A stretch of 64,000 bases of DNA. Origin: Kiritimatiellia bacterium. GTDB taxonomy: Bacteria; Verrucomicrobiota; Kiritimatiellia; JAAZAB01. The notes below the pieces were generated by a model. It did no database searches and was not told the origin of the DNA. It worked only from the letters and a program-made list of their open reading frames with translations. The stretch covers positions 8,343-72,342 of the forward strand of contig JAXGPF010000005.1 of NCBI GenBank assembly GCA_040767085.1. The letters are read 5' to 3'. Numbering within the stretch: the stretch's first letter is position 1; each line of letters starts with the position of its first letter. The translations under genes were made by a program, and so were the position numbers. Shown here in pieces: positions 27,485-64,000 of the stretch.

Positions 27485-27622
27485 AGCTTGTATTTCCTCC
27501 GCGCGGCGGCCAGCCGCACGCCTGCCGCCGGCGCGCGCGGTTGGAAGCATACTACGCCAAGCCGGCCGGCAAAGCAAGCTTTCGGAATTCCCGCGGCGGG
27601 CAGTTTAAATTTGACCGGCCGG

Positions 27623-27641
27623 ACACATCCCCGAAAAACCT
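27623..27641. repeat. 19-bp direct repeat ACACATCCCCGAAAAACCT, left flank of IS (target-site duplication)
   Basis: Identical copy at 29024..29042 read directly. Confidence 0.6.
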
Positions 27642-27727
27642 GTCGTAAACAAATGACTTGGCCGCATAATTAACAAATGATTTGTCCGCTTAAAGCTGTC
27701 AGGATGGTGCATTCAAAGGGGGGTTAT

Positions 27728-29113: not shown

Positions 29114-30727
29114 ATGAACTCCTCCGAAAAAAAAGATCCAGAGGCGCCGGCCGATCCGCTGGTAGACCTGCAGCGTCAATTCCAGGACGCCATGCGGCAT
29201 TATAACCTCGACGGCATGTTTCCCGGGGCCGGGTCCGACCCGGCCCCGTCGGTCAAACCGGCCGCGCCGCCGCCCGACCCGTTGCGCTGCATCCGGGAAT
29301 TCAATCACAAGCCCCGCGAAATCAGGGACTATCTGGACCGTTTCGTCATTCAGCAGGCGGACGCCAAAAAAGTGCTCGCCGTGGCCATCTGCGACCATTA
29401 CAATCATGCCCGGCAATGCATCGAAAATCCGGCCCTGCGCGAACGGGAATACGCCAAGCAAAATGTGATTCTCCTGGGCCCCACCGGCGTAGGCAAGACC
29501 TACCTCATCCGCTGCATCTCCCGGCTGATCGGCGTGCCGTTCGTCAAGTCCGACGCCACCAAGTTTTCCGAAACCGGCTATGTGGGCCATGACGTCGAGG
29601 ATCTGGTCCGCGACCTGGTCAAGGCCGCCGACGGCGACGTAGACCTGGCGCAATACGGCATCATTTACATTGACGAAATCGATAAAATCGCCGCCGCCGG
29701 CAATGCCGGGACGCGCGACGTCTCCGGGCGCGGCGTGCAGGTGAACCTGCTCAAGCTGATGGAGGACACTGATGTCAGCCTCCAAAGCCAGACCGACCTC
29801 CTGGGCCAGATGGAAGCCATCATGCAACTGCAGCGCAGCGGCAAGCCGCCCAAACGCACCATCAATACCCGCCACATCCTCTTCATCGTCAGCGGCGCTT
29901 TCGACGCGCTGGGCGAGCTGGTAAAAAAAAGACTGCAGGCCGGCGCAATCGGATTTGCCGCCGCCGGCCGCGCCACGCGGTCCGACAGCGAATGGCTGAA
30001 AAAGGCGGGCACCGCCGATTTCATCCAGGCCGGGTTCGAGCCGGAATTCGTCGGCCGCCTGCCGGTGCGCGTGGTCTGCGACGGCTTGACCGCCGCCGAC
30101 CTGGAGCAGATCATGCTTACGGCGGAGGACAGCATCCTGACGCAATACCGCCGGGACTTCGCGGGGTACGGCATTGACTTCAGCCTGACCCGCGAAGCCA
30201 TCGGCGCCATCGCCCAGCGGGCGGACGGCGAGCGCACCGGCGCGCGCGGGCTGATGACGGTCATGGAGCGGATTTTCCGGAACTTCAAGTTCGAGTTGCC
30301 GTCCACCGCCGTCAAATCACTGGAAGCCTCGACCGACACCATCGCCGACCCGGACGCGGCCCTGGCCGCCCTGTTGCGCGCCAACCTGCACGCGCAGGCG
30401 GGGCTGCTGAAGAAGGAAGTCGCCGCCTTCGCCGAGCGCTTCCGCCACGAACACGGCCTGGAACTGGTTTTCGAAGAATCCGCCATCTGTGCGCTGGCCG
30501 ACCTGAGCCTCCAGAAAGACCGGACGGTGCGCGCCATCTGCGAAGAAAAATTCCGCGACTTCCAGCACGGCCTGAAGCTGATCGCCAACAACACCGGCCA
30601 GACCCGGTTCGTCATCAACGACGCCATGCTGGCTGCGCCCGACCGCGAACTATCCCAATGGATCGTGGCGAGTTTCAAAGCCGTCCGGAACAAGCCGGCG
30701 CCCGCCGGCCCGCCGGAAGCGGTTTAA
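29114..30727 (+). CDS. ClpX-like AAA+ ATPase lacking the N-terminal zinc-binding domain
   Basis: ORF track; Walker A LLGPTGVGKT; GYVG pore loop; IYIDEIDKI; TRDVSGRGVQ; IGF-like loop AIGFAAAG; no C4 zinc ribbon; about 120-aa C-terminal extension. Confidence 0.75.
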   Translation: MNSSEKKDPEAPADPLVDLQRQFQDAMRHYNLDGMFPGAGSDPAPSVKPAAPPPDPLRCIREFNHKPREIRDYLDRFVIQQADAKKVLAVAICDHYNHARQCIENPALREREYAKQNVILLGPTGVGKTYLIRCISRLIGVPFVKSDATKFSETGYVGHDVEDLVRDLVKAADGDVDLAQYGIIYIDEIDKIAAAGNAGTRDVSGRGVQVNLLKLMEDTDVSLQSQTDLLGQMEAIMQLQRSGKPPKRTINTRHILFIVSGAFDALGELVKKRLQAGAIGFAAAGRATRSDSEWLKKAGTADFIQAGFEPEFVGRLPVRVVCDGLTAADLEQIMLTAEDSILTQYRRDFAGYGIDFSLTREAIGAIAQRADGERTGARGLMTVMERIFRNFKFELPSTAVKSLEASTDTIADPDAALAALLRANLHAQAGLLKKEVAAFAERFRHEHGLELVFEESAICALADLSLQKDRTVRAICEEKFRDFQHGLKLIANNTGQTRFVINDAMLAAPDRELSQWIVASFKAVRNKPAPAGPPEAV

Positions 30728-30761
30728 TCCGGCGGCGAATCCGGCGCGTCGAACCAGCCGT

Positions 30762-32189
30762 TCACCGCAGTTTGAACAATGCGCCCCGCGGAATAGTTTC
30801 ATAGGCGCCCATATCCACAATACCGGAAAATCGGTCCCGGCGCACAAATCCCGCAAGATCCACGGCGCCGGTCATCCAATCCATGTTGGTACCGGCGTTG
30901 ACGCCCGGCGACTGCGCATCCAGCCGGAAAGATTCATCGCTGAATAACGGCGGACTGGTTATATTGCCTTCGCCAGAACCCATCTCAGACGCGGGATATG
31001 AACAGGAATACACCACACCGCCGGTCAGTGCGGCTCCGCTCAAGTTAAGATTAGACTGCAACCCCGCCGCATTATTGTAAATGACGCAATTGACGGCGTG
31101 GACGCCGCTGACCTCCGCCGTGGTCACGCCGATATACAATCCCCCCCCGCTGGTGGTTGCCGCGTTTGACACAATCGTGCAATTGGCCAGTGAATTGCCG
31201 TTGTCGCGGTTTTGCGCCGCACAGTAGATTCCGCCGCCATAGGGCGCCGAGTTATAAGCGAACACATTATTGCGCAACACGATGCGGCAGGCATCGCCGC
31301 GAATGTATAATCCGCCGCCGTAGTAATAACCGGCGCGGGTCACCAGATTGCTTATGATCCGGCAATTTTCAATCACTGCCTCCCCGGACGCGGCGGCGCC
31401 ATAATAACAGTACATCCCCCCTCCCTGATTGGTTGCCGCGTTACAGGCGATAGTAGAATTAGCCACCACCCCCTCCATTTTCAAATGGATGCCGCCGCCA
31501 TACAAGCCGGCATTAGCAAAGATCACGCAATTGGAGATGAAACCGTTTTGCTCCACAAACACGCCGCCGCCATAATTGGGACACCGATTGGAAATGATGG
31601 AGCATTCGATTAACGCGCCGCTTTCCCGGATCAGCACTCCGCCGCCGCCATAGGAAGTATCCCGTTCGGACAAATTATTAAAAATGCTGCACCTTTCCAC
31701 CCGGGCCAACGGCCCGTTCAGGCAGACGCCCCCGCCATGCAGCCCGACATTTTCTTTTACCCGGCAATCGCGAAGCATTCCGGCAGAAATATAAACGCCG
31801 CCGCCATAAACTGCAGAATTGGCCGAGCCATTGCTGATGGTAAAACCGGTGACTACGGCATTGGAATGGCTGATGTTCAGACAGCGCACCGAAGCCTTGC
31901 CGTCTATCGATGTCTGCTCGGTGCCAGCGGCGCCGACCAGCCTAACGCCTTTGCTGACCGCCAATTCAGCTTCCAGAAAATATACGCCGTTGGATACCAG
32001 AATCATATCATCTGTCAGGGACTGATCCAGGGCATTGCTGATCGTACGCAAGGCCGTCGGCCAGTTCGTGCCGTCCGCCCCATCCTGTCCCAAAGTCGAA
32101 ACATACCATGTAGTTGCACCGCGGCCGGGCAGCGGCATCCCCAACCCTATAATCCATGCTAATGTCAGACAGCGCTGTAGTGCTTGCAT
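30762..32189 (-). CDS. secreted right-handed parallel beta-helix repeat protein
   Basis: ORF track; signal peptide; repeated YGGG motifs; C-terminal DMGAYE. Confidence 0.6.
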   Translation of the reverse strand: MQALQRCLTLAWIIGLGMPLPGRGATTWYVSTLGQDGADGTNWPTALRTISNALDQSLTDDMILVSNGVYFLEAELAVSKGVRLVGAAGTEQTSIDGKASVRCLNISHSNAVVTGFTISNGSANSAVYGGGVYISAGMLRDCRVKENVGLHGGGVCLNGPLARVERCSIFNNLSERDTSYGGGGVLIRESGALIECSIISNRCPNYGGGVFVEQNGFISNCVIFANAGLYGGGIHLKMEGVVANSTIACNAATNQGGGMYCYYGAAASGEAVIENCRIISNLVTRAGYYYGGGLYIRGDACRIVLRNNVFAYNSAPYGGGIYCAAQNRDNGNSLANCTIVSNAATTSGGGLYIGVTTAEVSGVHAVNCVIYNNAAGLQSNLNLSGAALTGGVVYSCSYPASEMGSGEGNITSPPLFSDESFRLDAQSPGVNAGTNMDWMTGAVDLAGFVRRDRFSGIVDMGAYETIPRGALFKLR

Positions 32190-32434
32190 CTCTATCCTTT
32201 CTCGTTGGCTACAACCTAAACCGCCAATGGCATGCCAGAAACAGTTTGCTATTTAAGTTAATTTCAAAGTCCGCTGGTCTATAATGCCTCAAGCTGACAC
32301 TAACTGACTTTTATACAAGTTAATCGCCACCTGATTTAAGAATTATAACAAACGAAAACCAGGGACGGCAAATATTTCCCATGTTGTGAGCAAACAAATC
32401 GTCCAGTTTGAGACTCTTGCACGTGGCTCGCATT

Positions 32435-34090
32435 TCAATTAAACATTACAGCTTGGGAAAAAAGCATATCCACTATTGGAATCGGCGCAGGCTCGCGCTT
32501 GTCGGAATCGACCGTTCCGCTGTAACCGCCCCCGCGAAAATCGTGCAGGCGGCTGATCTCCAGCACGTTCATGGATGCCATGGTCTCCGCCGTGAGCGGT
32601 TGGCCCTGGCAATGTGTTGCGGGATAAGCAAAGGCTTCGATTCTCACATATTTTTCCAGGATGCGGCCGGCGGGATCGCGGGAGAGTGTGTAAGCCGCCT
32701 GCGGCTGGTTTTCAATGAGGGCCACACCTTGGTCGGTGATGAAACGCACCTGCACGCGCGGCCTTTTGGTCTGATCCGCACCCGCCACTGCGACGGTTAC
32801 CGCGGTGGGATTCCCGGTTTTATCCTTTTCCAGGGCGATACGGGCGAATCGGAAACTACTGTAATCGTATGGCGGGGTTTTACGTCCCTGGCCATCGGTC
32901 GCCAGCGCGCCCAGCAGACCGTAAAAAGTTCCATTGCGGTAAGCGCGCGCGGCGTTATGCTCCCTGGCCTCCCGGGAAAGCTCCCCGGACTCCGGCACCA
33001 GCAGTATGTTGCGGCCCCGGGCGTAAACAAAATGATCGCGCACAAAAAAACCAAAACATCTTTGCCCGGTTGACAGCACTTCATCCCAGTGGTTGTAAAA
33101 AGCCAAGGTGCCCTTGCGGCCGAAAGCCAGGTGCTGGTTCCAAACCTCTATGCCCAGGACGCGCGGATCGAATGCCAGCTTTTCGAGCGTGGCTTCCAGC
33201 GGGCCGCCCGTGTGGTTGAGGGTGATACCGCCCCCGTCCCTGAAGCGGAGACCTTCTATCGGATGGCCCTGGCCATCTTGCATTGTGCCGTCAAGCGCCG
33301 CCTTATACGCATCGCGCCATGGCCGATGCACGCCCTGCCGCAGGACAAAGCGCAAGTCGGTAATTTCCTCCGGATTAAAATCGAACCGGACTTGCATCCG
33401 GCCGGATTCCGCCCGGAGATAGATTCTTCGCGTATTGACGGGGATGCTCCTTTTTTGCAGGTCGCTGTCCGGAGTGAGTTCGTAAGTTGCCGGGTCAACC
33501 TCGCGCGCGCCGGCTACCGCCAAGGTCATAGCCGCATCGGCTTTCCCGCTGATAAACATGTCCAGGCGGTAAATGCTCAGCCATGGCTTTTTATCGTCAT
33601 AGGGGTTCAGATTTTCGAACGCGTATGCCACGGGGGAAGTCCGGTTATTGCGGTATGACGTTTTTGCGCTTTCGCCATGCCCGGTGGCGTAATAGCTGTC
33701 CAGCGTATTGAAATGGCCGGGACCGTGAGCGCTATGATGCTCGGCGTTGGGCGCCCAGAGGGCGTCCGGGTGCTGCGCCCGGAACTTCTCGGGCAAGGGT
33801 TGCGGTTTGGAAGGATAGTAGTTGGAAAAAGGGAAATGGCGAAATCCCATTTCCCAGAATAGTTCGGGATTGACATCATAATCCGGCACGCGCCCGCCAT
33901 GCTGATGGGAAAAGGAATGCAGATGTTCGACGCTGCTCCAGTCAACGTTTTCGTATGGGTTCATAATTCTGTTCGGGGCGGCGGATGCATGTTCCTGTCC
34001 CGCGGTTGGCCGGGTGAAGACAAGCCCGGAGTAAACAAACAGCGTCACCAATATGGCGCTATTTCTGCGAACCTGCCTTGGACGCATCAT
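32435..34090 (-). CDS. secreted hypothetical protein (possible glycan-active or metal-dependent hydrolase)
   Basis: ORF track 32435..34096 (GTG) trimmed to ATG 34090; signal peptide; His-rich HLHSFSHQHGG; no confident family. Confidence 0.45.
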   Translation of the reverse strand: MMRPRQVRRNSAILVTLFVYSGLVFTRPTAGQEHASAAPNRIMNPYENVDWSSVEHLHSFSHQHGGRVPDYDVNPELFWEMGFRHFPFSNYYPSKPQPLPEKFRAQHPDALWAPNAEHHSAHGPGHFNTLDSYYATGHGESAKTSYRNNRTSPVAYAFENLNPYDDKKPWLSIYRLDMFISGKADAAMTLAVAGAREVDPATYELTPDSDLQKRSIPVNTRRIYLRAESGRMQVRFDFNPEEITDLRFVLRQGVHRPWRDAYKAALDGTMQDGQGHPIEGLRFRDGGGITLNHTGGPLEATLEKLAFDPRVLGIEVWNQHLAFGRKGTLAFYNHWDEVLSTGQRCFGFFVRDHFVYARGRNILLVPESGELSREAREHNAARAYRNGTFYGLLGALATDGQGRKTPPYDYSSFRFARIALEKDKTGNPTAVTVAVAGADQTKRPRVQVRFITDQGVALIENQPQAAYTLSRDPAGRILEKYVRIEAFAYPATHCQGQPLTAETMASMNVLEISRLHDFRGGGYSGTVDSDKREPAPIPIVDMLFSQAVMFN

Positions 34091-34240
34091 AATCACTGTA
34101 ATCCATCTCCCATGGAAATATTATGCCGGCAATATACGAGTTGTTTACAAAAGCCTGGCGCAATATGGATTTTTAGTTTTACGTTGAAAATCCAATCGTG
34201 TCAAATTTAAGGCTCCTAACCAGAATTTGTGGGTAAAAAA

Positions 34241-35936
34241 CAGGTTTTAAAGTTTAAGAAGTTCTCCAAGCAATGGCGCCAAAAGATGGTGGAGTTATTA
34301 ACAGCCTGCCGCTTTGGGCGTTTGGCGGCCCCGCAGCAGCCTGATTAATAACTCCTGATTGGCGCGATGGCGGAACGGAGATAAAGCGGCGGCAAAAAAA
34401 TAGGCTGGCCTTTCCGTAATCCATTGCGTATGCAATGGGTGAACACAAAAAAAGGAGGACCAGCCCAAGGTGAAACTTAAAACAATTTTGAATCGTTTGC
34501 AACCTTTGAAACGTTTTATTTATCAGGAAACTTGTATGGTTTTGGATCGTCGCGGCCAATGGAAAGTGGATATAAGCATTCGTCCGCATCGCCAACGCGC
34601 GGCATGCTGCTCGCGTTGCGGGCGACCGCTGGCGACATACGACACTCTGCCTGAACGGATATGGGCGTTTGTGCCCATTTTGAATGTGCCGGCTTTTTTG
34701 CATTATAGTCCGCGCCGGGTAAATTGCCCCGAACATGGCGTGGTGGTGGAAGCGCTGCCTTGGAGCGATGGCAAACGACCCTACAGCAAGGCGCTGATGC
34801 TTTTTTTGGGGAACTGGGCGCGGAGGTTGTCCTGGAAAGAGACGGCGCTGATTTTCAAAGTCAGTTGGCAGGCGGTTTATCGGTCGGTCGAGTGGATGGT
34901 GGAATGGGGCTTGGCGCACCGGGAATTGGCCAATATAACGGCGATTGGTGTTGATGAACTCCACGTAGGCAACGGTAAAAAGAGCAAGAACTATCTGACC
35001 TTGATCTATCAGATTGATGCGCAATGCCGCCGATTGCTCTGGGTCGGCCAAACCCGCCGGGCGGCCGCGCTGCGTAAAGGGTTGCAATCTTTGGGAAAAC
35101 CCGTGCTGGCCGGCATTCGACATATATGTAGCGATATGTGGCGACCTTATCTGAAAGTCATTGCTGCGAGCCTCAGCCACGGTTGCCACATGATTGACCG
35201 CTTCCATGTCGTGCAAACCTTGAATGCCGCCGTGGACGAGGTCCGGCGCCGGGATATGGCGGCGATGACAGCGCGTCCGGCGGCCAAGCAAAAACTCAAG
35301 AAAATGCGCTGGACCTTGCTGCGCCGCAAAACCCGCGTGCGCGGCAAAGCTCGCGAAATGCTTGATCGGATATTGGGCACAAGACTGCAAACCGGCCGCG
35401 CCTATTTGTTCAAGGAAAGCTTTCAGCATTTTTGGAGCTATCACAGCCCAACCTGGGCGCGTAATTATCTCCAGGCATGGGTCAAGCGCGCCTGTCGTAG
35501 CCGCATTGCGCCAATCATTAAGGCGGCTAAAACCATTGCTAAACACGAGGAGCTGCTTTTGAACTGGATCAGAGCCAGAAACGAGGTTTTTACTGGCGCA
35601 ACCGAGGGCTTGAACAATAAAGCTCGAGTGGTTACCAAACGATCTTATGGCTTCAGAACTTTTCATGGCGCGGAAATGGCGCTATATCATACCCTTGGGC
35701 AATTGCCCGAACCGGTAATCACCCACAAATTCTGGTGAGGAAACAAATTTAATAACTCTACGAATTTTGCTGAATTTTCACGTTTTTACTGTATTTGGAC
35801 GGACGCGCCTGTTTACGGCCTTTACGCGCTATACGTTAATCTGCCTGGAGTGACAACAAGCGAAAACGGGATAAAACCAATGTTTGCCCAAATTTCAGCA
35901 AAACAAAGCATCCATTTTTAGACTTTTGAAACCAGA
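34241..35936 (+). mobile_element. ISL3-family insertion sequence (boundaries approximate)
   Basis: ISL3 transposase flanked by imperfect inverted repeats (about 34241..34263 vs 35913..35936, roughly 17 of 22 matched); GC visibly lower than surroundings. Confidence 0.5.
34470..35738 (+). CDS. ISL3 family transposase
   Basis: ORF track; GTG start after AGGAGG; N-terminal zinc-finger cysteines; C-terminal TGATEGLNNKARVVTKRSYGFR and terminal HKFW. Confidence 0.85.
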   Translation: MKLKTILNRLQPLKRFIYQETCMVLDRRGQWKVDISIRPHRQRAACCSRCGRPLATYDTLPERIWAFVPILNVPAFLHYSPRRVNCPEHGVVVEALPWSDGKRPYSKALMLFLGNWARRLSWKETALIFKVSWQAVYRSVEWMVEWGLAHRELANITAIGVDELHVGNGKKSKNYLTLIYQIDAQCRRLLWVGQTRRAAALRKGLQSLGKPVLAGIRHICSDMWRPYLKVIAASLSHGCHMIDRFHVVQTLNAAVDEVRRRDMAAMTARPAAKQKLKKMRWTLLRRKTRVRGKAREMLDRILGTRLQTGRAYLFKESFQHFWSYHSPTWARNYLQAWVKRACRSRIAPIIKAAKTIAKHEELLLNWIRARNEVFTGATEGLNNKARVVTKRSYGFRTFHGAEMALYHTLGQLPEPVITHKFW

Positions 35937-35943
35937 TTAATGA

Positions 35944-37197
35944 TTATCTTGTTATTAATCTGATCGCAATATTTTCACAACCGGCCGGCGGCGCATAATT
36001 TTCCAACCGGCTGATCGTTCGCCCGTTCGATTCCGCTATGATGTCATAATGGAAAAAGGTCGTCACGGGCACGCCATCCGCATCCGCCGCGATTATGCTG
36101 TGGGTTAAAATAATAGCGCGGGCATCGCCGGCGCCCGGCGTGCATCCATCCGTTCCGGTGATGGCGTAATTATTGGCGACCAGGTCTTCCCCCGTCTCGC
36201 GGGGTACGGCGCGCACGCGCGCCCGTGCGACAGGGTCACCGGCATCATTTTCCACACGGACTGCCACTTGCCGACGGAAAACGGCCCGGCTGCTTTGGCC
36301 AGGTTGCGCCGCGTAAACATCCGGCTGTGCGCCGGGAGCAACCTGGCAATCCGTCAATTCAATCCGGCCGCCGCTGGTCAATTGCCAATTGCGCGCATTG
36401 CGTTCGAATCGGCAGCCATGCAAAAGGATGGTATTGCCCTGGATACCGGCAATAACCGTGGTGTTTTCCCGGAAACAGCAGCCTTCCGCCGCTTGATCCG
36501 GCGCGCTGAAAACAGATGCATTATTTTCGAAAATCGAATCGCGGATTGACGCGCGCTGCCGGGCGGCGCCAAATAAAGCGGCAGCGTTGAATCCGGCAAC
36601 CAACGCGCGGTCCAGGGTGACCAGCCCTGACCAATAAGGGCGGGCTATTTCCCGCCGCCCGCTCGCCGATGCAAGCACACCATGATAAATATGCAACTCG
36701 CCGCCATAGCCGTTTTGCCACCCCCCACGTCCATCGGGCAACTTGCCGGAAACAATCGTGTGGTCTTTCCCGCCGATCTTAAGCGCCGCCCGGATGGCGG
36801 AGTTTGTGCGGTTGCCCAAGGTCAAGCGGTTGACGCACGCGGGAGCGTATCGGTCGTTCACGCCGACCACCAGATAAGGCGCAAGAATCAAAGTTCCGTT
36901 CAGGATCAAAGTTTCGTTGGCCAACAGTGGACATCCGATTTGCATCCACGTTTCAGAACCGTCATTCCGGCCAACCTGCAGGTTGGCGTCAACGGTATAT
37001 GTTTGCGCGCCGGCATCCTTCCGTACCAGGTTCCAACCATTGGCGCGGTCAGCGCGCAACAGTGACTCCAGTCGCGCCGGCGCTGACTCGGCAAAGTCAG
37101 CCACAATCATCGTGCGCGTACCGGACTCAAAAACGACTGTCGCCGGCAAGGGGAGGCTGATCAACAGGCATGCCAGACAGGCAATAATTTTACCCAT
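35944..37197 (-). CDS. secreted beta-helix-like hypothetical protein
   Basis: ORF track 35944..37236 trimmed to ATG 37197 (AGGTGG SD upstream; signal peptide MGKIIACLACLLISLPLP); stop lies within about 10 bp of ISL3 right end. Confidence 0.5.
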   Translation of the reverse strand: MGKIIACLACLLISLPLPATVVFESGTRTMIVADFAESAPARLESLLRADRANGWNLVRKDAGAQTYTVDANLQVGRNDGSETWMQIGCPLLANETLILNGTLILAPYLVVGVNDRYAPACVNRLTLGNRTNSAIRAALKIGGKDHTIVSGKLPDGRGGWQNGYGGELHIYHGVLASASGRREIARPYWSGLVTLDRALVAGFNAAALFGAARQRASIRDSIFENNASVFSAPDQAAEGCCFRENTTVIAGIQGNTILLHGCRFERNARNWQLTSGGRIELTDCQVAPGAQPDVYAAQPGQSSRAVFRRQVAVRVENDAGDPVARARVRAVPRETGEDLVANNYAITGTDGCTPGAGDARAIILTHSIIAADADGVPVTTFFHYDIIAESNGRTISRLENYAPPAGCENIAIRLITR

Positions 37198-37223
37198 ATT
37201 ACCACCTGAATCCGTTATGAGGT

Positions 37224-37357
37224 CGGGATGCCGCATCCCGCTGGAAGTGCGACAAGAATACGCGGCGCGAAGGATGAAGCTGGATCAACATATCCCGCGA
37301 TAGCGGGACAAGCTGCAAGTTTATCCCGCGAGCGGGATTTATCCCGCACAGCGGGAT
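37224..37357. repeat. array of four short GC-rich hairpin palindromes sharing half-site ATCCCGC/GCGGGAT
   Basis: CGGGATG-CCG-CATCCCG (37224..37240); ATCCCGC-GATA-GCGGGA (37292..37308); ATCCCGC-GA-GCGGGAT (37323..37338); ATCCCGC-ACA-GCGGGAT (37341..37357); extra half-site at 37497..37503. Confidence 0.5.
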
Positions 37358-37530
37358 TCTTCGCAATAGAGCAGATGCGGCATAATGGCCTCACCCGCAG
37401 GGCGGTCTTTCCCGTCAAACCGAGCCGTGCTTTTTTGGTGATATTGTAAAACGCCATAAATTGTTGTTTATTCAGGCATTATCTTAACAATATAAAATCC
37501 CGCCACGGATTCAGGTTGCATTGCCGCGGG

Positions 37531-40500
37531 TTATGGCTCGAATTCCGTCGCCGCAGCGCCGCGTTCTATCTGCAACCCATCCACCCAGACAGTGCTGCTG
37601 GCATCGGACACAAAATGCACTCCCAGCATGCTGGCGCCCGACCCGGCTTCGAAAGCCACACTGCAGCGTTGCCATTGGCGTTGCAGTTGGAAAGAAGTGT
37701 CGCCTTTTCCGCCGGCGCGCAGCTTGGCGGTCACGCCCTCTCGATCCGCGCGCAGCCAGGCGGAAAATACATATTTTTCCGGCGTCATATGGCTGGTATG
37801 CAAATTGATATAAATAAACCGCCAGCTACCGCCATCCGCAATCATTTCCAGACATTTAGCGCCATGGTACGGAGCATTGGTGGTCAACCCCCACACTTGA
37901 TTGGAACCGCCAATGCGTTCCCAGGGCTTCAGCGGCGTTCCTGTCTGGCGCCAGTAATCGGGACGGCCGGGAATGGATTCCTCTTCCAAACTCGGATTCG
38001 GCGCCAGGTTTTTCATATCAACCCGCCCCGCCCGCCCGTAAGTCGGCGTCCGCGGCGGCGGCATGCCCCGCGGCTGCATGGCGACCCCGATGGCAAGCGC
38101 CCCGTCTAGCACGGAATCATGGCCGGCTTTTTGTATATGATAGGCGCGCACTCCCAGCGGTTCCAGTTGATCATCAAAGGCGCCGGCGGTAACGGGATAA
38201 GCAGCCGCCAGGAAAAGTTCTTGAATGGCTTCGGCGCGCTCAAACAGGGGGGAATCGTATCGCACCGCAACCGGGTAATCGGCGACATTGGCGGCCAGCA
38301 AGATAAAGCCCCCGTCCGGGTCGCGCTTCAGCGCAACATGTACATCCGGCATGCGCCGGGCGTCAAAATCATACGGCCCGCCGGAATAATTCACGGTTTG
38401 GGGCAGATCCGGTTCCAGGCATGCGGGACTTAACCGCCGCAGGCGCCGTGCCAATTCGCGCAGCGTATCCCAGTTAGCCTGAGCGCGCTCCGGGTAGCAG
38501 AAATATCCGATGCCTTTGACGCCGTGGATCAAAGCCAGGTAGGTTTGGCACACCTGCTCGGCGGGCAGCAAGGCGCGCTTGACGATCCCGCTGTATTCGG
38601 CGCCCTGCATGACGACCAGGGGCACCACGCGCATCCGCCGCGCTTTCAGCCGCAAGTGATGCGCCATCCAAGCGACATAATCAATAGTGCCGTTGACGCC
38701 TGCATGTTCCGGCGTCCAGTATGGATCAATCCCCAACATATCCGCCCAATCAAACCAGTCATCCGAACATTGGTACACGCCCGGATTACAATTGAGAAAA
38801 ACCGGATGGTAGCCGTCCAGTTTTTTTATCCGGCGATAGAATTCCCGGCCGACGGGAATCTGGCCGTAATTGATATTCAACAACGGCTCGTCGAAAATGA
38901 AACAAGCGGCCAGCGCCGGATGCCGCATTCCCGCCTGCAATACCGCCGCAAGATAAGGCATCTGATTGTCAAGATACTCCAGCAATACTGCGGTTTTAAC
39001 TTGCGCAGCGCGTCCGGGAATGGCGGAGAGAATGACATCTTTGCTGCGGATGCCCAACGAGCAGGTGGCATGTTGCAAGGCGCGGTTGACCGCATGCAGT
39101 TCCTCCGGATTCAGTAGTTGATCCCGGTTTTTGACCTTGGTGCGGGCGTTGAACGGCGTATAATTCATATCCACAGCCGCAATGACTTTCAGACCATGCC
39201 GCGCCGCGGCATCCAGGTATGCCTGCATATCTTTAACTTGATCGCCCTCAGGATCGCTGCGGTCGCCCGCCGGCTGATATGACCATTGGTACATGGTGTT
39301 AAAACCGGCGTCCGCTATTTCGGCGAAAGCATAATCATCCGCCGGCGTAATGCCGGCCATGATCATCCCGCACGGAAAAAACGGCTTGCCGTTGTCAAGC
39401 AGCCGTTGATTGGCCCGATCCACTTTCCACTCGCAACCCGGGCGCGGAGCGCGCTTAATCAGCGGCAGTGCCAGCACCGACCCGGCGCCGCCATCCGCCA
39501 GCACGAGTTCCAAGTGCAATTGGTGTTCCCCCGCCGGCACCCGATCGAGCGGCACGGCAAAATCCAACCGGGGGGGTGGCGCGTCCAGACTAGCCAGCAC
39601 CTGCGCTCCCAGCCGCGCCTGGAGATGGAGATCGCGCAAGGTTTCCGCCGGCATTCCGATACGGCAAGCGGCATACGCCGCCGATTCCGTCGTGTAATAA
39701 TCGCGGTCTAACTCTGCCGCGAACAGGTTCAGTACGCCAGCATCTGCGATAGCCAGCTTTTGCCAGGTCTCGCGTGTCGTACCGTCCACCAAACACACCG
39801 TGACGGCGCGTTCCGTCATGGCCGCGACCGGAACCGGCACACGCGCCGACAGCATGACAGCGCTGCCATCCGCGAAAACAACCTTTTCAGCCAGAGTGCT
39901 TTCGCCATGGCGGGGTTCGTCCTTCACGGCAATGAGCACGGTCCCGGTGGCAGAACTGAACAACTGCAAGTCGGCCTGAATGTCATAAAAAGCCGTCCCA
40001 TTGGTGACATAATACTGACTGACTTCCGCCGATTTAATATAGGGCAGCAAAGGCGCAACCAGGCTATTTATTTCCAAATCGAGCAGGCGCCCGAAACGCG
40101 CCGCCTCCGTCCAGGCGTTGGCGGGTGAACTGCCTGAAAGCGCCGCCCAACTGAGGCATTCGCGCTCTGCACCAATTTTCACCCGGCAAGCGTCGCGGTA
40201 AACGCGGAAACAATCAATGATAAAATTCATCCGAGCTTGCTCGGGGTGACCTACCTCGGTCAGAAGCGCAAGCGGCAGCGCAATTTCAACTTGCCAGCCC
40301 CGGGGATCGGTTGTCACCGCCGATTTCCATGGAATATTCCATTCCTCGCGTTCGCGGCCCTTATCCGTAGTCACCCGGAAATCGGCCCGGGTGTTGGCTT
40401 TATTGACTAGAAACTGATAAAACATTTGGCCGCCCGTGCCGGGATCGAAGGAAACCTGCACATTATCTTCGCGTTGCACAGGCTGGTCGTGTGATAAATA

Positions 40501-40791
40501 AAGCGGCGGATCGCGCTGATCTTCCGGTTGGTCAACCGTGAAAGCCGCGTAAAGCCAGCGGCTGTCACGCAAAACGCGCACATAATGCCTGCGGACGGCG
40601 CCGGAGTCTCCTCCAACCTGACGAAATTCATCCACCAGCGCGGCTGCCGACCAGCAAGCATCCGTTATAATCCCGTCAATGAGCGGCGCTTCCATGGCGC
40701 ATGGAACCCGGATTTCGGGGATACCGCCGGCGCCGGCGCGCATGGCCAGAGCAAACAGACCGATTTTCACATATTGGCTCAAATCACGCAT
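37531..40791 (-). CDS. large secreted multidomain protein, CBM9-like N-terminal domain, putative glycoside hydrolase
   Basis: ORF track; 1086 aa; signal peptide; N-terminal APLIDGIITDACW pattern; domain calls tentative. Confidence 0.5.
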   Translation of the reverse strand: MRDLSQYVKIGLFALAMRAGAGGIPEIRVPCAMEAPLIDGIITDACWSAAALVDEFRQVGGDSGAVRRHYVRVLRDSRWLYAAFTVDQPEDQRDPPLYLSHDQPVQREDNVQVSFDPGTGGQMFYQFLVNKANTRADFRVTTDKGREREEWNIPWKSAVTTDPRGWQVEIALPLALLTEVGHPEQARMNFIIDCFRVYRDACRVKIGAERECLSWAALSGSSPANAWTEAARFGRLLDLEINSLVAPLLPYIKSAEVSQYYVTNGTAFYDIQADLQLFSSATGTVLIAVKDEPRHGESTLAEKVVFADGSAVMLSARVPVPVAAMTERAVTVCLVDGTTRETWQKLAIADAGVLNLFAAELDRDYYTTESAAYAACRIGMPAETLRDLHLQARLGAQVLASLDAPPPRLDFAVPLDRVPAGEHQLHLELVLADGGAGSVLALPLIKRAPRPGCEWKVDRANQRLLDNGKPFFPCGMIMAGITPADDYAFAEIADAGFNTMYQWSYQPAGDRSDPEGDQVKDMQAYLDAAARHGLKVIAAVDMNYTPFNARTKVKNRDQLLNPEELHAVNRALQHATCSLGIRSKDVILSAIPGRAAQVKTAVLLEYLDNQMPYLAAVLQAGMRHPALAACFIFDEPLLNINYGQIPVGREFYRRIKKLDGYHPVFLNCNPGVYQCSDDWFDWADMLGIDPYWTPEHAGVNGTIDYVAWMAHHLRLKARRMRVVPLVVMQGAEYSGIVKRALLPAEQVCQTYLALIHGVKGIGYFCYPERAQANWDTLRELARRLRRLSPACLEPDLPQTVNYSGGPYDFDARRMPDVHVALKRDPDGGFILLAANVADYPVAVRYDSPLFERAEAIQELFLAAAYPVTAGAFDDQLEPLGVRAYHIQKAGHDSVLDGALAIGVAMQPRGMPPPRTPTYGRAGRVDMKNLAPNPSLEEESIPGRPDYWRQTGTPLKPWERIGGSNQVWGLTTNAPYHGAKCLEMIADGGSWRFIYINLHTSHMTPEKYVFSAWLRADREGVTAKLRAGGKGDTSFQLQRQWQRCSVAFEAGSGASMLGVHFVSDASSTVWVDGLQIERGAAATEFEP

Positions 40792-40998
40792 GCATATCCC
40801 GTTTGATGTCAGACGGCACTCCGCCGCGGTATGCTGGCAGTCTTTGGACAGCCGTTGCGATTGAAGGTATTCCTGCCGGCAATTTTCCGCAACTGGAAAA
40901 ACTTGCTTTTTTGTGGAAAATATTGCTGCCCCGGTCAGACCGCTGCCTGGTCAGTGCGCCAAGGGGTGACGGGCATGCAGTTCCGCGGCCGGGCGCCG

Positions 40999-56961: not shown

Positions 56962-59900
56962 TTACTTGCGGCGCCGCCGGCTGGCAACGTCTGGTACAAT
57001 GACAAAATGTGCGCTGGCATGAGGCGCCAGTTCCAGGCTGAGCCGCAGATATGCGGCGTTTTTTTCCACTAAATGCCAGGGGCAATCGCACCGGATGCGC
57101 GCCGGGGCCAGCCGGGGCAGGCGGATGGTCAGCACCGGCCGGATGGTTTGCGCCGGCGCGGGGTGGTTGTCTTCCATGACGACGATATTCGCCTGTCCGC
57201 GGCGGTCGTAAAAGGCGATCAACTTGCCCGCGGTGGATTCGACTGCCGGCCGGCCCGCCCAGCGCAGCGCCAGGGCCATGGCCCGGTTCATCAACACGCT
57301 CCGGCTTTCCTTGCCGTAGGACACCAGGTTTTTCAAATCCAGCCGCTGAACCATGGTCGGAGGTATGGTGAAAAAAACCGTCCGGCCCCATCGGGTTTGC
57401 CGGCATACCAGGGCGGCCGCCAGTTTCCGGCCGCGTGCATCCAGTCCCGCGATCAGCGTTGCGGCCGATGCGGCATCGTAGGCCGCCCGGCAATGCGGCG
57501 TAGCGCATTCCTCCGCCGCGGCCGGCAAGTCCCGCCAAATGCCGGCGCGGCCGGCGGCCGCCTGCAGAGCGCGCAGTGGGAGCGGCCGCTCCAGGCGGCG
57601 GATGCCGAACAAGTCGGCCAGGCTGCCGGCTTCCTCGAACCCGACCAGGGCCACACCCCGCGCATGCAGGCGGCGGATCGCCTGCTGGATTGCCATGGAA
57701 ACGCCGGTCAGCGGCGGCAGCACCAGGGAATGCGCGTCTGCCGGATCGAGTTGCTCGATCGCCGCCAAGTCCGCCAGGAACCCGGCCTGCTGGCCATCCA
57801 AACGCGCCTGCTCATAGGCGAAGGCCGGCGCTTCCTCGGCCGTATTGACGACATCGTGGTAGTCCAGGCGCAACTCGAAATCAGGATTGGTGCGGGTGGG
57901 CGTAAATGTATCCGGATGCGCCAGGCAGGCGCCGCGGCTGACGGCAAAGGCGGTTGTCCGCAACGGCCGCGCCGGCGGATGCTTGCGGATCGTTCCCCAG
58001 GCGCGGAGCATTTCGCGGTAATGCGCCTGGTTCCAGGCCATGGCCTGAAACCCGTTGTCCCGCCAAAAATGCCAGCCGGCGGCGTCGAACCAGGCGGCCG
58101 CAAAGGCATACTCGAAAAAAGTTTTCCGGAAGAACGGCGGCGGGGTATGCGAGTGGCCGTAAGGCGGCCTGCCGTACACCGGGCGCAAATCGCTGGCGCA
58201 GCCGTTAATGCCATAGACTTCGGGGTAGATTTTCAGGCCCGGCCCTTCCATTTTCAGGGCGGCAAGCATGAAGACCGCGCGTTGCAGCGGATAGCCGCAC
58301 ATGTAGGGATAATCCTCCAGCAGCATCGGGCCGTCATAAAACCGCTCCAGGCGGCGGCGCAAGTCGCGGCCGGTGTACCGCGCGAAATACGCGCCCTTGT
58401 AAGCGGAACCATAAGGCGGGTAAATGCCGTAAGTCACCCATTCCGCGCCGGCATTGACCGCGCGCAAGCGCCGGTGCATGGCCGGCAAATGTTCCTGCAG
58501 CATGTACTGGTTGAAAAATTCCACCCACTCCTTCCAATGCCGGGTCAGCAGTTCGCAATACATTTCAAAGCTCAATTTCCGGCTGCTCGCGATCGCCGCC
58601 GCGTCCAGGCTGGCGGCTGCCTGGTTCCGGCTCCGGCGGTCCGCCGGCGCCGGGCCGGCCGGCGGATGCCGCCGGAGGAATTTCAGCAATGCGTCCAGCA
58701 CCACCTGGTCGTAACCGCCGTGCCACAGATCGTGCCGCTGATTCCAGTAAATCCGGTCGGCATGCGGCAACACGTCCGCATTTTTTTCCGGGTCTTTCTC
58801 CGGCGTCATGCGGCGGTGCAGTTCCACTACCCATTTGCGCCGGTAAAGATGGACTACATTCCAGATCCGATCGCGCCGCGCCGGCAAAATCTGATGGCAG
58901 CAATTGGCCAGGTAATGCGCGGCGTCCACCCCGCGTCCCACCCAGGGATCGAAGGCGCCGGTTTCCGTGGCGTAGTCCGGGATATTCGGAATCAGGTCCG
59001 GCAGCCCGGAAGCCTGCGGAGGCGACGGCGCCGCCGGGTCGGCGGACATCACTTCAAACGCGCTGCGGGTTGCAAGGATCCGTTCCTCGCCGCGCCGTAA
59101 TTCCGCGCGGAGATGATATACCCCGATCCGCAGTCCCGTAAAAATCACCGGCGCGGAGATGAAGGTGGCGGCGCCCAGGCGCGCGGCCAGTTGCGCCGAT
59201 AAATCGTCGCCCGCCGCGGTCAGTTTCACCGGCCGGGCCCGCTGTTTGGGCGCTTGATAAGCATCCTCCAAAGTCACCTGGAGCGACAAGTCCGCGGCGC
59301 GCCAATCCGGTCGGCGATGGCGCACCCGGCAGGTCAGCCGTACGCGCTCGGAAGTCAGGAAAAAGTGGTTGTTTTGCGCGAAGGCCAGCGCCGCCGCGCG
59401 GCGTTTTTCGGTCCGGGGTATCATGGCGGCGATTTGCTTGTCGGGCGGCGATAGAATTTCCAGCACGGCCGCGCCGGGATCGAGCGCCGGACCGTTGTAA
59501 ACCACTTTCCCGGTTTGCGGACACACCAGCATTTCGGCGGGGCCGCCCGCCAGCGCCAGGCGGTCTTCCGCCTCGTAATATTCATAGCCCAGCGCCAGCC
59601 AGGTCCGGTCCGGCAACCCCCGGAACAGCAACTCCCGGCACGCCGGCCCTTCCGCGTCGCAGGGCCAATCGCCGGACGAGCGCGGATTCCAATGTTCCTT
59701 CAAACCCAGGGATCCGGTATGCAGGTAATATTTTTGCGGCGCGTCTTCGCCGCTTTCCACCCGCACGTAAGGCCGCGTCAAGCGCGAATTCCCGCGCAAC
59801 CCGCGGAAGTCGCACACCGACGGCGGACGCTGAGCAGGACCGCCTTCCAGCGCGGCCGCCAGCTTTGTCCGCCGCGGACTGCGCCAGCCGGCGATGCGGA

Positions 59901-60603
59901 ACCGCCAGGGATCGGTCATCCCGTTCCAATCGGCGGGCAATTCGAAGCAGCGTTCGGGCCAGAGCCGCCGCCATGTTTCGCGTTCGCGCGATTGAATCCG
60001 CACCTGCCGGATATCCAGCACATAAAACTGAGCTGCATAAGCGCGGTCCAGGCCGATCAAGCCCGGCCCATCGCATGTGCGCGCCGGGTCGGCAAACCGG
60101 GCCGCGCAAATATCCTGGTGGTAAAACGCAAACGAGCAGGCGCCGATTTTCAGTCGCAGCCGGCAATCCGACGTCGGCGGCGTCGCGGGCGCGCCGGACA
60201 GCCGCGGCGCGCGCGCCAGGGTGTCAATATTCCCGTCGCGATAGATGCCAAAGACGGTTTCCAGCCCCTGGTCGCCGCCCCAGGCGTGTTGAATGCAATA
60301 GCCTGCGCGCCGCCGGGGATCATACCGGAAATAAATGCGCAAGGCGCACCGCGCGCTGTAAACGTCGCTGCGCGCCGTGAACGTCACCTGGGCCGTCCGC
60401 GCCGGGGGGGCCGGCGGGAAATGCAGGTTGCCGGCGAACAGGAAGCGCAGGGCGCCGCCGCGTATTTCCGCCAGGTCATGGAACAGGTCGGCATGCCGTT
60501 CCACCGCCCATCCCTGCGGCGCCGTCCCATCCAACTGGGACTGGAAATCATCCTGGTAAATCAAGTTGTCAGACACCTTTGATTTGCAGAATGGTGTTTG
60601 CAT
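56962..60603 (-). CDS. large hypothetical protein, 1213 aa, no signal peptide
   Basis: ORF track; ATG at 60603; no family recognised. Confidence 0.5.
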   Translation of the reverse strand: MQTPFCKSKVSDNLIYQDDFQSQLDGTAPQGWAVERHADLFHDLAEIRGGALRFLFAGNLHFPPAPPARTAQVTFTARSDVYSARCALRIYFRYDPRRRAGYCIQHAWGGDQGLETVFGIYRDGNIDTLARAPRLSGAPATPPTSDCRLRLKIGACSFAFYHQDICAARFADPARTCDGPGLIGLDRAYAAQFYVLDIRQVRIQSRERETWRRLWPERCFELPADWNGMTDPWRFRIAGWRSPRRTKLAAALEGGPAQRPPSVCDFRGLRGNSRLTRPYVRVESGEDAPQKYYLHTGSLGLKEHWNPRSSGDWPCDAEGPACRELLFRGLPDRTWLALGYEYYEAEDRLALAGGPAEMLVCPQTGKVVYNGPALDPGAAVLEILSPPDKQIAAMIPRTEKRRAAALAFAQNNHFFLTSERVRLTCRVRHRRPDWRAADLSLQVTLEDAYQAPKQRARPVKLTAAGDDLSAQLAARLGAATFISAPVIFTGLRIGVYHLRAELRRGEERILATRSAFEVMSADPAAPSPPQASGLPDLIPNIPDYATETGAFDPWVGRGVDAAHYLANCCHQILPARRDRIWNVVHLYRRKWVVELHRRMTPEKDPEKNADVLPHADRIYWNQRHDLWHGGYDQVVLDALLKFLRRHPPAGPAPADRRSRNQAAASLDAAAIASSRKLSFEMYCELLTRHWKEWVEFFNQYMLQEHLPAMHRRLRAVNAGAEWVTYGIYPPYGSAYKGAYFARYTGRDLRRRLERFYDGPMLLEDYPYMCGYPLQRAVFMLAALKMEGPGLKIYPEVYGINGCASDLRPVYGRPPYGHSHTPPPFFRKTFFEYAFAAAWFDAAGWHFWRDNGFQAMAWNQAHYREMLRAWGTIRKHPPARPLRTTAFAVSRGACLAHPDTFTPTRTNPDFELRLDYHDVVNTAEEAPAFAYEQARLDGQQAGFLADLAAIEQLDPADAHSLVLPPLTGVSMAIQQAIRRLHARGVALVGFEEAGSLADLFGIRRLERPLPLRALQAAAGRAGIWRDLPAAAEECATPHCRAAYDAASAATLIAGLDARGRKLAAALVCRQTRWGRTVFFTIPPTMVQRLDLKNLVSYGKESRSVLMNRAMALALRWAGRPAVESTAGKLIAFYDRRGQANIVVMEDNHPAPAQTIRPVLTIRLPRLAPARIRCDCPWHLVEKNAAYLRLSLELAPHASAHFVIVPDVASRRRRK

Positions 60604-60644: not shown

Positions 60645-60668
60645 AAGACAAGCAAATTTGCTTGTCTT
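60645..60668 (-). promoter_or_regulatory. perfect 24-bp palindrome with U-tract in the 5' leader of the 1213-aa gene (attenuator or operator candidate)
   Basis: AAGACAAGCAAA/TTTGCTTGTCTT read directly; on minus strand followed by T-tract, ending about 36 nt upstream of ATG 60603. Confidence 0.4.
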
Positions 60669-60776: not shown

Positions 60777-63700
60777 ATGTCAAACGTAAAAGACCGACTG
60801 CCCGGCTGGATGTTGATATCGTTCGCGGCCGCCATGCTGGCCCTGTCTGCCGCCACGGGTTGGTACTACCAGCATGGACGGCGGATGATCGAAGCAAGAG
60901 CCGCGGACCATTTAACCGCCATCGGCCGTTTGAAAACCGGCCAGATCGCCGCGTGGCGCAGAGAGCGGCTGGCCGACGCCGCCGTCCTGGCCCAGGGCGT
61001 CGCCTTTTCCGCTAAAGTCGCCCGGTTTCTGGCGGGTCAGGACAGGGAAGACACGCAAGAATTGCGGGCGTGGTTGCGCCGTTACCAGGAGCATTATCAT
61101 TATGCGGATATCCTGCTGATTGACCGCCAGGGCTCCTGCCGGCTCAACCTCTCGGGCAAGCAGATGGCGGCGGAAAAATTCCAGCCGGCGCTGGCGCCCG
61201 CCTTTGAAATGCGGCGGCCTTATTTGACCGACCTGCACTCCGATCAGGATATTCCCGCCGCGCATGTCGGCGCAATCGCGCCCATCTTCGCCGGGAACGA
61301 TCCGGCGACCGAACCCCTGGGCGCGATCATCCTGATTACCTACGCCGACCAGTACCTCTTTCCGCTGTTGCAAACCTGGCCCGCGCCCAGTTAAACCGCG
61401 GAAACCATCCTTTCCCGCCGGGATGGCGCGGACATTTTATTGATAACACCACTGCGGCATCAGCCGGATGCCGACCAGCCCCGGCGTATGCCCTTAACCC
61501 AGACGAATGTGCCGGCCGTTCAGGCGGCCCTGGGACACGCGGGGGTCGCGGCGGGCGTGGATTACCGCGGCGCCAGGGTTCTGGCCTACGCCGCTGCCAT
61601 CGCCAACACACCCTGGTTCCTGGTGGCCAAGCAGGACGAGGCGGAAATCTTCGCCGATTGGCGGTATCGCAGCCGGATGATCCTGGGCGCCTTCCTGGCC
61701 TGGGCCGCCGGCATCATCGGCATCGGGGCCGCTGCCTGGCAGCGCAACAACAAGGCGCATTACTGCGCCTTGTATCAAGCCGAAGCCCGGCAGCGCGCCG
61801 CGGCGGAAGAGGAAGCGATGATCCTGTGCTCCATCGGCGACGCCGTCATTGCCGCCGACTCGGCCGGCCGGGTGAAAGTAATGAACGGCGTGGCCGAGGA
61901 ACTTACCGGCTGGACCGAGCAAGAAGCCATCGGCAAACCGCTGGCCGAGGTCTTCAACATCATCAACGAAGAAACCCGGCAGCCGGCGGAAAATCCGGTG
62001 GCGAAAGTCCTGCGGGAAGGCGTCGTGGGCGGCCTCGCCAACCACACCCTGCTGATCTCCCGGGACGGCCGCGAGCGGCCCATCGCCGATTCCGCCGCGC
62101 CGATTTACGACGAGGCCGGCGGCATCGTCGGGGTGGTTTTGATCTTCCGCGACAAGACCGCCGAATGGAACTACCGGACGCTCTTCGAAAAAATGCTTGA
62201 CGGCTTCGCCGTGCACGAATTGATCTGCGACGAGCAGGGCCGGCCGGCGGACTACCGCTTCCTGGAAGTCAATCCCGCCGCCGAAAGCATGCTGGGCAAG
62301 CCCGCCGGGGAGATCATCGGCAAGACGATCAGCCAGTTGCTGCCCAAAACCGAGCGTAACTGGATTGAAATCTACGGCCGCGTGGTGCAAACCGGCCGTC
62401 CCGCCCGCTTTGCGGCTTACGCCCAGGCGTTGAACAAGCATTTCGAGGTATCGGCCTTCCGCACGCATGCCCATCAATTCGCCGCTATCTTCCAGGATGT
62501 CACCGCGCGCCACCAGACCGAGCAGGCGCTGCAGGAGAGCGAACGCCGGCACCGTTCGCTCACCGACGATGTGCTGGACAACACGGAAGTCGGCATAATC
62601 ATCCTGGACGCCCAGTTCAACGTGGTTTTGATCAACCATGCCATCGAGCGTTTCTTCGGATTGCAGCGGGAACAGGCTGTTGGCCAAAACAAGCGGCGCC
62701 TGATACAGGAGCAGATTGCCGGCATCTTCGAGGATCCGGTGGAATTCCAAGCCCGGCTCTTCGCCACGTATGCCAACAACTCCTATGTCGAAAAATTTGA
62801 ATGCCGGGTGATGCCCGACGGGCCGCGGGAAGGGCGCTGGCTCCAGCATTGGAGCAAGCCGATCGGCGCCGGCCTGTATGCCGGCGGCCGGATCGAGTAT
62901 TATTACGACATCACCGAACTCAAACAGGCGGAAGAAGAGCAGCGGCGGCTGTTCTCGGCGATCGAACAAAGCGGCGATATTGTCATCATCACCGATCCGG
63001 AAGCGAATATCCAGTACGTCAACCGGACCTTCGAGCAAATCACCGGCTACATCCGCGCGGAAGTCCTGGGCAAGAATCCGCGCCTCCTGAAAAGCGGCAA
63101 ACAGGGCGAAGGCTTTTACCGCGAGATGTGGGATCACCTGGCGGAAGGCAAGGTTTTTCGCGCGTGCATGATTAACAAGTGCAAAGACGGCTCGTTATAC
63201 ACTGAGGACGCCACCATCTCGCCGGTCTTCGACAAAGCCGGCAAAATCGTCAATTACGTTGGCGTCAAGCGCGATATGACCGAGCGCCTGTCCATGGAAG
63301 CCCAACTGCAGCAGGCGCAGAAAATGGAACTGGTCGGCCGGCTGGCGGGCGGCGTGGCTCACGATTTCAATAACATGCTCAGCGCCATCCTGGGCAATGC
63401 GGAATTAGTATTGGAGCAAACGCCGGCGGAATCTCCGACTTACCCGGAAATCCAGGAAATCATCGCCGCCGCCAAGCGTTCCGCGGGCATCACGCAGCAG
63501 TTGCTGGCGTTTGCCCGCAGGCAAATCATTTCTCCCAAAATGCTGGATTTGAATGATAGCATATCCAGCATGCTCAAGATGCTGCAACGCCTGATCGGGG
63601 AGAATATTGACCTGGCCTGGCTGCCTTCCAAAACCGCCTGCATCGTGAACATAGATCCTTCGCAACTGAGCCAGGTGCTGGTCAACCTTTGCGTCAATGC

Positions 63701-64000
63701 CCGGGATGCCATCCATAATATCGGCAAAATCACGATTGAAACCAGCAAGATCAAGCTGGATGAACAGTATCGCGCCATCCATCCGGAAGCCGCACCCGGC
63801 CCGTATGTCATTTTAAAAGTCAGCGATAACGGCAGCGGCATGGATGCGGAAACGATGAGCCATCTTTTCGAACCGTTTTTCACGACCAAAGAAGTCGGCC
63901 GCGGCACCGGCCTGGGCCTGGCCACGGTGCATGGCATCGTGACGCAAAATCACGGATTCATCCAGGTGGAAAGCCAGCCCGGCCAGGGCGCCTATTTCCA
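60777..64000 (+). pseudogene. sensor histidine kinase (Cache-like sensor, TM, 3 PAS, HisKA, HATPase) interrupted by in-frame TAA at 61392..61394; 3' end beyond window
   Basis: Track ORF 60777..61394 ends at TAA; same frame continues without further stops through second Cache half, TM2, PAS domains, H-box VAHDFNN and HATPase GTGLGL to window end. Confidence 0.7.
61488..64000 (+). CDS. C-terminal portion of the histidine kinase if the stop is genuine (restart at ATG 61488; TTG 61440 also possible), partial
   Basis: First in-frame ATG after the TAA; not in ORF track because no stop inside window. Confidence 0.35.

Follow-up and report, generated by a model that had tools for sequence, protein, structure and literature searches.

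The sensor kinase gene at the end of the window, the 64,000-nucleotide stretch of DNA analysed here, is interrupted by one in-frame TAA. We consider it probable (roughly three chances in four) that this stop arose by a genuine nonsense mutation, very recent and confined to one lineage, and that it has left an accessory two-component sensor with a young loss-of-function allele, or nascent pseudogene. Read through the stop, the locus is one hybrid sensor histidine kinase gene with the domain order TM1, periplasmic dCache, TM2, four PAS, HisKA, HATPase_c and receiver. The frame that begins with ATG 60777 on the + strand runs for 1074 codons to the window end (60777-63998 translated), and neither a second stop nor a frameshift was found in this part of the fused frame. 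An earlier note on this DNA had described a sensor histidine kinase broken by an in-frame TAA; the single stop in 1074 codons and the continuous alignment with orthologs bear this out. The features of the locus are as follows.

60777..61394, + strand: N-terminal ORF of 205 aa comprising TM1, the stalk helix and the membrane-distal Cache module, taken from the ORF list and aligning with residues 1-205 of intact orthologs.
60807..60869, + strand: TM1, residues 11-31, WMLISFAAAMLALSAATGWYY, read from the sequence; a long N-terminal helix in the ortholog model.
60870..61676, + strand: periplasmic dCache sensor, residues ~32-300, broken at codon 206 (PF02743 in homologs; P0015 model).
61392..61394, + strand: premature in-frame TAA at codon 206, where orthologs have sense codons.
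61440..61442, + strand: in-frame TTG 45 nt past the stop, start of the database protein P0013 (MITPLRHQ...), with a weak and badly spaced SD-like match.
61488..61490, + strand: in-frame ATG made by the lineage-specific change I238M (codon alignment), the gene-caller start on Logan contig L001.
61677..61739, + strand: TM2, residues 301-321, beginning at ATG 61677.
61830..63278, + strand: four cytoplasmic PAS-type domains (residues ~352-462, 466-585, 600-720 and 725-834; Pfam PAS_4, PAS_8, PAS_7 and PAS).
63336..63524, + strand: HisKA dimerisation/phospho-acceptor domain with the H-box AHDFNN (Pfam residues 854-916; H862 invariant).
63654..64000, + strand: catalytic domain HATPase_c, truncated where the window ends (Pfam residues 960-1074).

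Analysis of the fused protein with Pfam gave 28.4 bits for HisKA (cut-off 26.9) and 64.3 bits for HATPase_c. In the ortholog alignment, H862, N970/N974, D1017-G1021 and G1043-G1047 are invariant, and the gene holds both the HisKA phospho-acceptor His and the N, G1 and G2 boxes of HATPase_c that mark a hybrid kinase. The remaining element of a hybrid kinase lies outside the window, since the gene runs ~130 codons past its end into a receiver domain that is seen in the 100% identical protein P0013. PF00072 was found in P0013 and in all orthologs, and the alignment continues through the conserved D of TDVVMP. PAS, H-box and HATPase motifs had been noted downstream of the stop from the start; in that description the count of three PAS domains has to be changed, as Pfam gives four PAS-type domains, and the receiver past the window end has to be added, which makes the kinase a hybrid.

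The sensor is less readily recognized. For residues 1-345 of the fused protein, no Pfam match was obtained at E <= 0.01, and a profile search of PDB sequences with the sensor yielded marginal matches only (KinD, E 0.14). When the sensor part was searched by itself, it returned homologs at 35-48% identity, several of them with Pfam dCache_1 (PF02743). The structure that we modelled is the sensor of the intact ortholog P0015 (AlphaFold/AF2), which is 59% identical to the sensor region of the window. This model (pLDDT 90, pTM 0.78) has the elements of the dCache fold, namely a stalk helix and two tandem PAS-like modules placed between two TM helices, and it matched the solved dCache domains of DvhD, PctA, Mlp24, PscC and DctB with Foldseek E values of 4e-10 to 4e-7. 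Solved dCache domains (PctA 5t7m/5ltx, Mlp24 6ior, PscC 6mni, DvhD 9rc2, DctB 3e4o and KinD 4jgo) share this fold of a stalk helix with distal and proximal PAS-like modules, with TM-scores to the model of up to 0.73 on the target at just 9-17% sequence identity. Because the homologs carry PF02743 and the P0015 model matches solved double-Cache domains, the term "Cache-like", used in the earlier note for the domain that holds the TAA, is the right label for the window sensor as judged from the model of its ortholog. In the same model the stop aligns with K199, which lies in a loop (193-201) between the helix that closes the distal module (187-192) and the strand that opens the proximal one (202-209). 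The TAA therefore falls where the membrane-distal Cache module joins its membrane-proximal partner. Thus, unlike the solved dCache domains, the window gene has a sensor domain that is cut at the loop between its modules.

A search with the fused protein returned P0013 (1001 aa, 100% identical), which is the downstream piece called from TTG 61440 and comes from an NCBI contig of 375,777 bp, P0014 (1202 aa, 78% identical to the fused protein) and P0015 (1214 aa, 68% identical), followed by a further series of 1230-1260 aa at 53-57% identity, one of which is labelled Kiritimatiellia. With tblastn, residues 1-1074 aligned unbroken to the P0014 and P0015 loci and to relatives from Verrucomicrobiota/Kiritimatiellia MAGs. 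Chance juxtaposition of two ORFs was rejected, as each side of the stop aligns continuously with single orthologous proteins. The value of GC3 is 0.76 upstream of the TAA and 0.77 downstream, and with values so nearly equal both flanks look coding in the ATG 60777 frame. The N-terminal ORF was also called identically in Logan contigs L001 and L002.

The relatives P0014-P0024 and P0030-P0034 are dCache-PAS hybrid kinases of ~1200-1240 aa from Kiritimatiellia/Verrucomicrobiota and Desulfobacterales MAGs, some of them labelled "PAS domain S-box protein" or "CckA-like" at the source. Their domain order is that of the window gene, their identity to the entire fused frame is 45-78%, and they share the WPxPS-x-TAET motif, the H-box, the N/G boxes and the receiver. 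Each is one uninterrupted gene, and the stop at codon 206 is found only in the species of the window. The stop occupies the variable x of the conserved WPxPS-x-TAET motif, and a comparison of orthologs at this codon, which the earlier note had called for, gave a sense codon in 14 of 14 aligned full-length orthologs (45-78% identity), with A, K, Q, E, R, N or H at this residue. The codons opposite the TAA are GCA (Ala), AAA/AAG (Lys), CAG (Gln), GAA (Glu) and CGN (Arg); for instance, P0014 has GCA and P0015 has AAA. A TAA is one substitution away from AAA, CAA and GAA, that is, from K, Q and E, all of which are seen there in relatives. Likewise, all 22 related loci in species-representative genomes, retrieved using a 5-sequence alignment, encode the whole sensor domain without a stop. 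An in-frame stop therefore stands inside a conserved domain where orthologs have a sense codon, which is the pattern of a nonsense pseudogene. The earlier note had held that orthologs consisting of two genes with the same breakpoint would speak against a disruption, and none was found: the kinase is split in 0 of the 14 aligned full-length orthologs and in 0 of the 22 genomic loci. On this comparison, a two-gene architecture is neither natural nor conserved, and the stop is specific to the species or lineage of the window.

Outside this codon the gene shows no decay. Using P0015 as the outgroup, we counted window-specific against P0014-specific changes and obtained 14 versus 12 in the N fragment, 10 versus 10 in residues 206-300, 2 versus 2 in TM2 plus linker and 47 versus 47 in the cytoplasmic part. 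Window changes at columns that are invariant in all other orthologs numbered 0, 2, 0 and 6 over four similar regions, which is within the range of the intact orthologs. Nei-Gojobori dN/dS was 0.20-0.32 in every region and pair, and the window gene was no outlier, as the two intact orthologs gave the same values against each other. In the part of the gene within the window, we found none of the signs of relaxed constraint expected of a pseudogene (more lesions, raised dN/dS or rate acceleration). The window gene is separated from its nearest known relative by a dS of ~0.55. As ~3.4% of the possible single-base changes in the kinase gene create a stop, we estimate that an unused gene of 3.6 kb would gain a second lesion, and then others, within roughly 1-2% neutral divergence. 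Since the rest of the gene has no other lesion, no acceleration and a dN/dS of 0.2-0.3, the nonsense mutation is very young when set against the divergence from that relative.

Four window-specific replacements are clustered at residues 233-238 of the proximal Cache module (61473-61490), namely A233D, L234Q, L236R and I238M. Of these positions, L236 is kept by all 14 other sequences and is replaced by R in the window. This cluster could reflect chance, early decay or adaptation. A compensated double frameshift behind the divergent DQPRRM stretch was rejected, as the codon alignment resolves it into four point substitutions.

In the reading that we favour, a recent nonsense mutation, a single-base change, most simply from AAA, CAA or GAA, would have produced the TAA. 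Translation from ATG 60777 would then stop after 205 residues and leave a membrane-anchored fragment without signalling output. The kinase part either would be absent, translation having been lost and Rho-dependent polarity being likely, or would be made inefficiently from an internal start and would have no working periplasmic sensor. The gene is perfectly preserved but for one codon, a pattern that would also arise if the downstream product were still used, and on the sequence loss of function is therefore no more than probable. Nonsense pseudogenes and loss-of-function alleles of two-component sensors are ordinary in bacterial populations. Those alleles likewise have one premature stop in an otherwise intact accessory gene of one lineage, and the window stop differs from them solely in its tidy position at a domain-module boundary. 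The feature is therefore of a kind that is already well known and is no new gene organisation. For annotation, it means that the 205-aa and ~1001-aa ORFs are to be described as one disrupted hybrid sensor kinase gene and not as two proteins, and that this periplasmic sensing input should be counted as missing from the organism. The locus is a clean case of a nonsense allele so young that secondary decay has not begun, with little significance beyond annotation. Only expression of the downstream kinase would make it a natural experiment in which a dCache sensor is uncoupled from its kinase.

Three explanations of the stop had been put forward in the earlier note, and they fared differently: the nonsense pseudogene stands, a sequencing or assembly error is disfavoured by the occurrence of the TAA in two more assemblies, and a split gene with a restart has gained no positive support. 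The last of these survives best among the alternatives, although we consider it unlikely. It holds that the gene was functionally remodelled, with translation restarting at TTG 61440, ATG 61488 or ATG 61677 to give a truncated hybrid kinase that has lost periplasmic ligand control and keeps signalling by way of the four PAS domains in its cytoplasmic part, with the 205-aa fragment as a by-product. The 868+ downstream codons are indeed intact, with conserved catalytic motifs and no relaxed constraint, but a very recent pseudogene is equally expected to be intact. The restart codons named earlier, TTG 61440 and ATG 61488, are present in the sequence, 45 and 93 nt past the stop. They are followed in frame by GTG at 61509, 61557 and 61623 and by ATG 61677 at TM2, and gene callers differ in the start that they choose (61440 versus 61488). 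Neither TTG 61440 nor ATG 61488 has a convincing ribosome-binding signal; their SD-like energies are unremarkable, in a genome whose SD use is mixed. The stretch 61434-61448 is unusually AT-rich and resembles the native start region, but lineage-specific nucleotide changes are not in excess at the restarts (14 versus 14 over codons 212-251), and neither these nor GC-to-AT changes cluster significantly near 61440-61490. It is the lineage-specific I238M that makes ATG 61488, but Met at this position also occurs in the intact ortholog P0030. A promoter and terminator scan returned nothing over the shuffled expectation. Moreover, in a product of the 61440 or 61488 start, an N-terminal tail of ~65-80 residues would need to cross the membrane although it lacks a signal peptide, and arginines that flank the periplasmic side of TM2 would make its topology uncertain. 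These scans and alignments gave no positive evidence for an evolved restart.

A related proposal keeps both pieces at work. Because the stop falls exactly in the inter-module loop, the two pieces could function as a two-chain receptor, in which an anchored, ligand-binding distal Cache chain is joined by a kinase chain that starts at TTG 61440 or ATG 61488 and carries the proximal module. The chains would re-associate in the periplasm, making this a naturally arising split sensor kinase. We regard such a receptor as highly improbable.

That the true genome has a sense codon at 61392, and that the TAA is a sequencing, assembly or consensus error, is very unlikely. The window apparently comes from a metagenome-assembled genome and a single wrong base would suffice, but the same TAA is carried by contigs that were separately assembled from two other runs, SRR13306801 (3473 bp) and SRR13306812 (1305 bp). 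Over 3.5 kb, the sole difference between the window and the Logan contigs is at 61018, with T in the window and C in both contigs (99.9% identity), a nonsynonymous change giving Val81 versus Ala. The three assemblies possibly derive from related samples of one study, making their independence partial, but the lesion is reproducible at the assembly level, being present in the window and in the contigs of both runs. The lesion is also a substitution in non-repetitive surroundings (CCCAGT TAA ACC) and not a homopolymer indel. It is this agreement on the TAA among three assemblies and two slightly different genotypes, together with the nature of the lesion, that makes an error so hard to credit. 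In the protein collection, a 194-aa N-terminal fragment (P0001/P0012) comes from an NCBI contig, identical in sequence to the window, and from two Logan assemblies. Among the database matches, drawn from 5.8 billion protein clusters, there was no intact allele of the protein of the window species, the matches being limited to the fragments P0001/P0012 and P0013. An exact-pattern scan with the stop codon left free (TGGCCCGCGCCCAGTNNNACCGCGGAAACCATC) had no match in species-representative genomes or JGI metagenome contigs, and a literature search on SRR13306801 and SRR13306812 found nothing.

Lastly, we give hardly any credence to programmed read-through, or to a reassigned or suppressed TAA, by which the full-length kinase would still be made: the frame is perfectly continuous over the stop and orthologs tolerate many residues at the position, but no relative conserves the stop (14 orthologs, 22 loci), TAA terminates ~10 other likely genes of the window, the window holds no suppressor tRNA, and neither an Rfam match nor notable structure lies near the stop. 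The window contains a single tRNA, tRNA-Glu(UUC), and the Rfam search near the stop returned sub-threshold noise only. Among bacterial stop codons, TAA is the least leaky. In a simple set of likely genes drawn up by GC3 for the 64-kb window, those other than the kinase ORF end in TAA (10), TGA (21) or TAG (6). Stop-codon reassignment was rejected, as all three stops are in use within the window. With a stop that is unique to the species of the window and a TAA that ends other likely genes, the locus has the marks of neither read-through nor reassignment.

The neighbours of the recently disrupted kinase gene in the window are ordinary chromosomal genes, including those for a class II aldolase, Sua5/TsaC, MlaD/MlaE, a xylose-isomerase-like TIM barrel, a 1209-aa beta-helix protein, class II ribonucleotide reductase, glycosyltransferases and a Ser/Thr kinase. 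In L003 and L004, the ortholog loci that we compared, the neighbours of the kinase differ, and for this reason it looks like an orphan sensor without conserved gene context. Upstream of the kinase start, a 173-bp divergent intergenic region contains a perfect 24-bp palindrome (AAGACAAGCAAA/TTTGCTTGTCTT) at 60645-60668. It is followed by TTTTTT on the minus strand and looks terminator-like, and it could be an operator or attenuator. The palindrome occurs once in the window, and its only other finds were in L001 and L002, contigs of the same species. On the other side of this region, divergent from the kinase gene, lies a 1213-aa ORF (56962-60603, - strand) with good coding statistics and zero Pfam matches.

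Further from the kinase, the block at ~30700-40800 has a GC content of 0.50-0.60, against 0.62-0.70 around it, and contains five long minus-strand ORFs (475, 553, 470, 430 and 1086 aa) with no Pfam match; it may be an acquired island. An ORF at 27677-28912 (+ strand) has N-terminal HTH domains of the IS481-type transposase, with the integrase-core match absent, and begins one codon past the TAA of a same-frame ORF at 26603-27673 (no Pfam match). Together, 26603-28912 (+ strand) may be a mobile-element remnant. An ORF at 3719-5167 (- strand) encodes an IS200-like Y1 transposase domain (PF01797, E 3e-9) and overlaps the start of a beta-lactamase-family ORF at 4845-6785.
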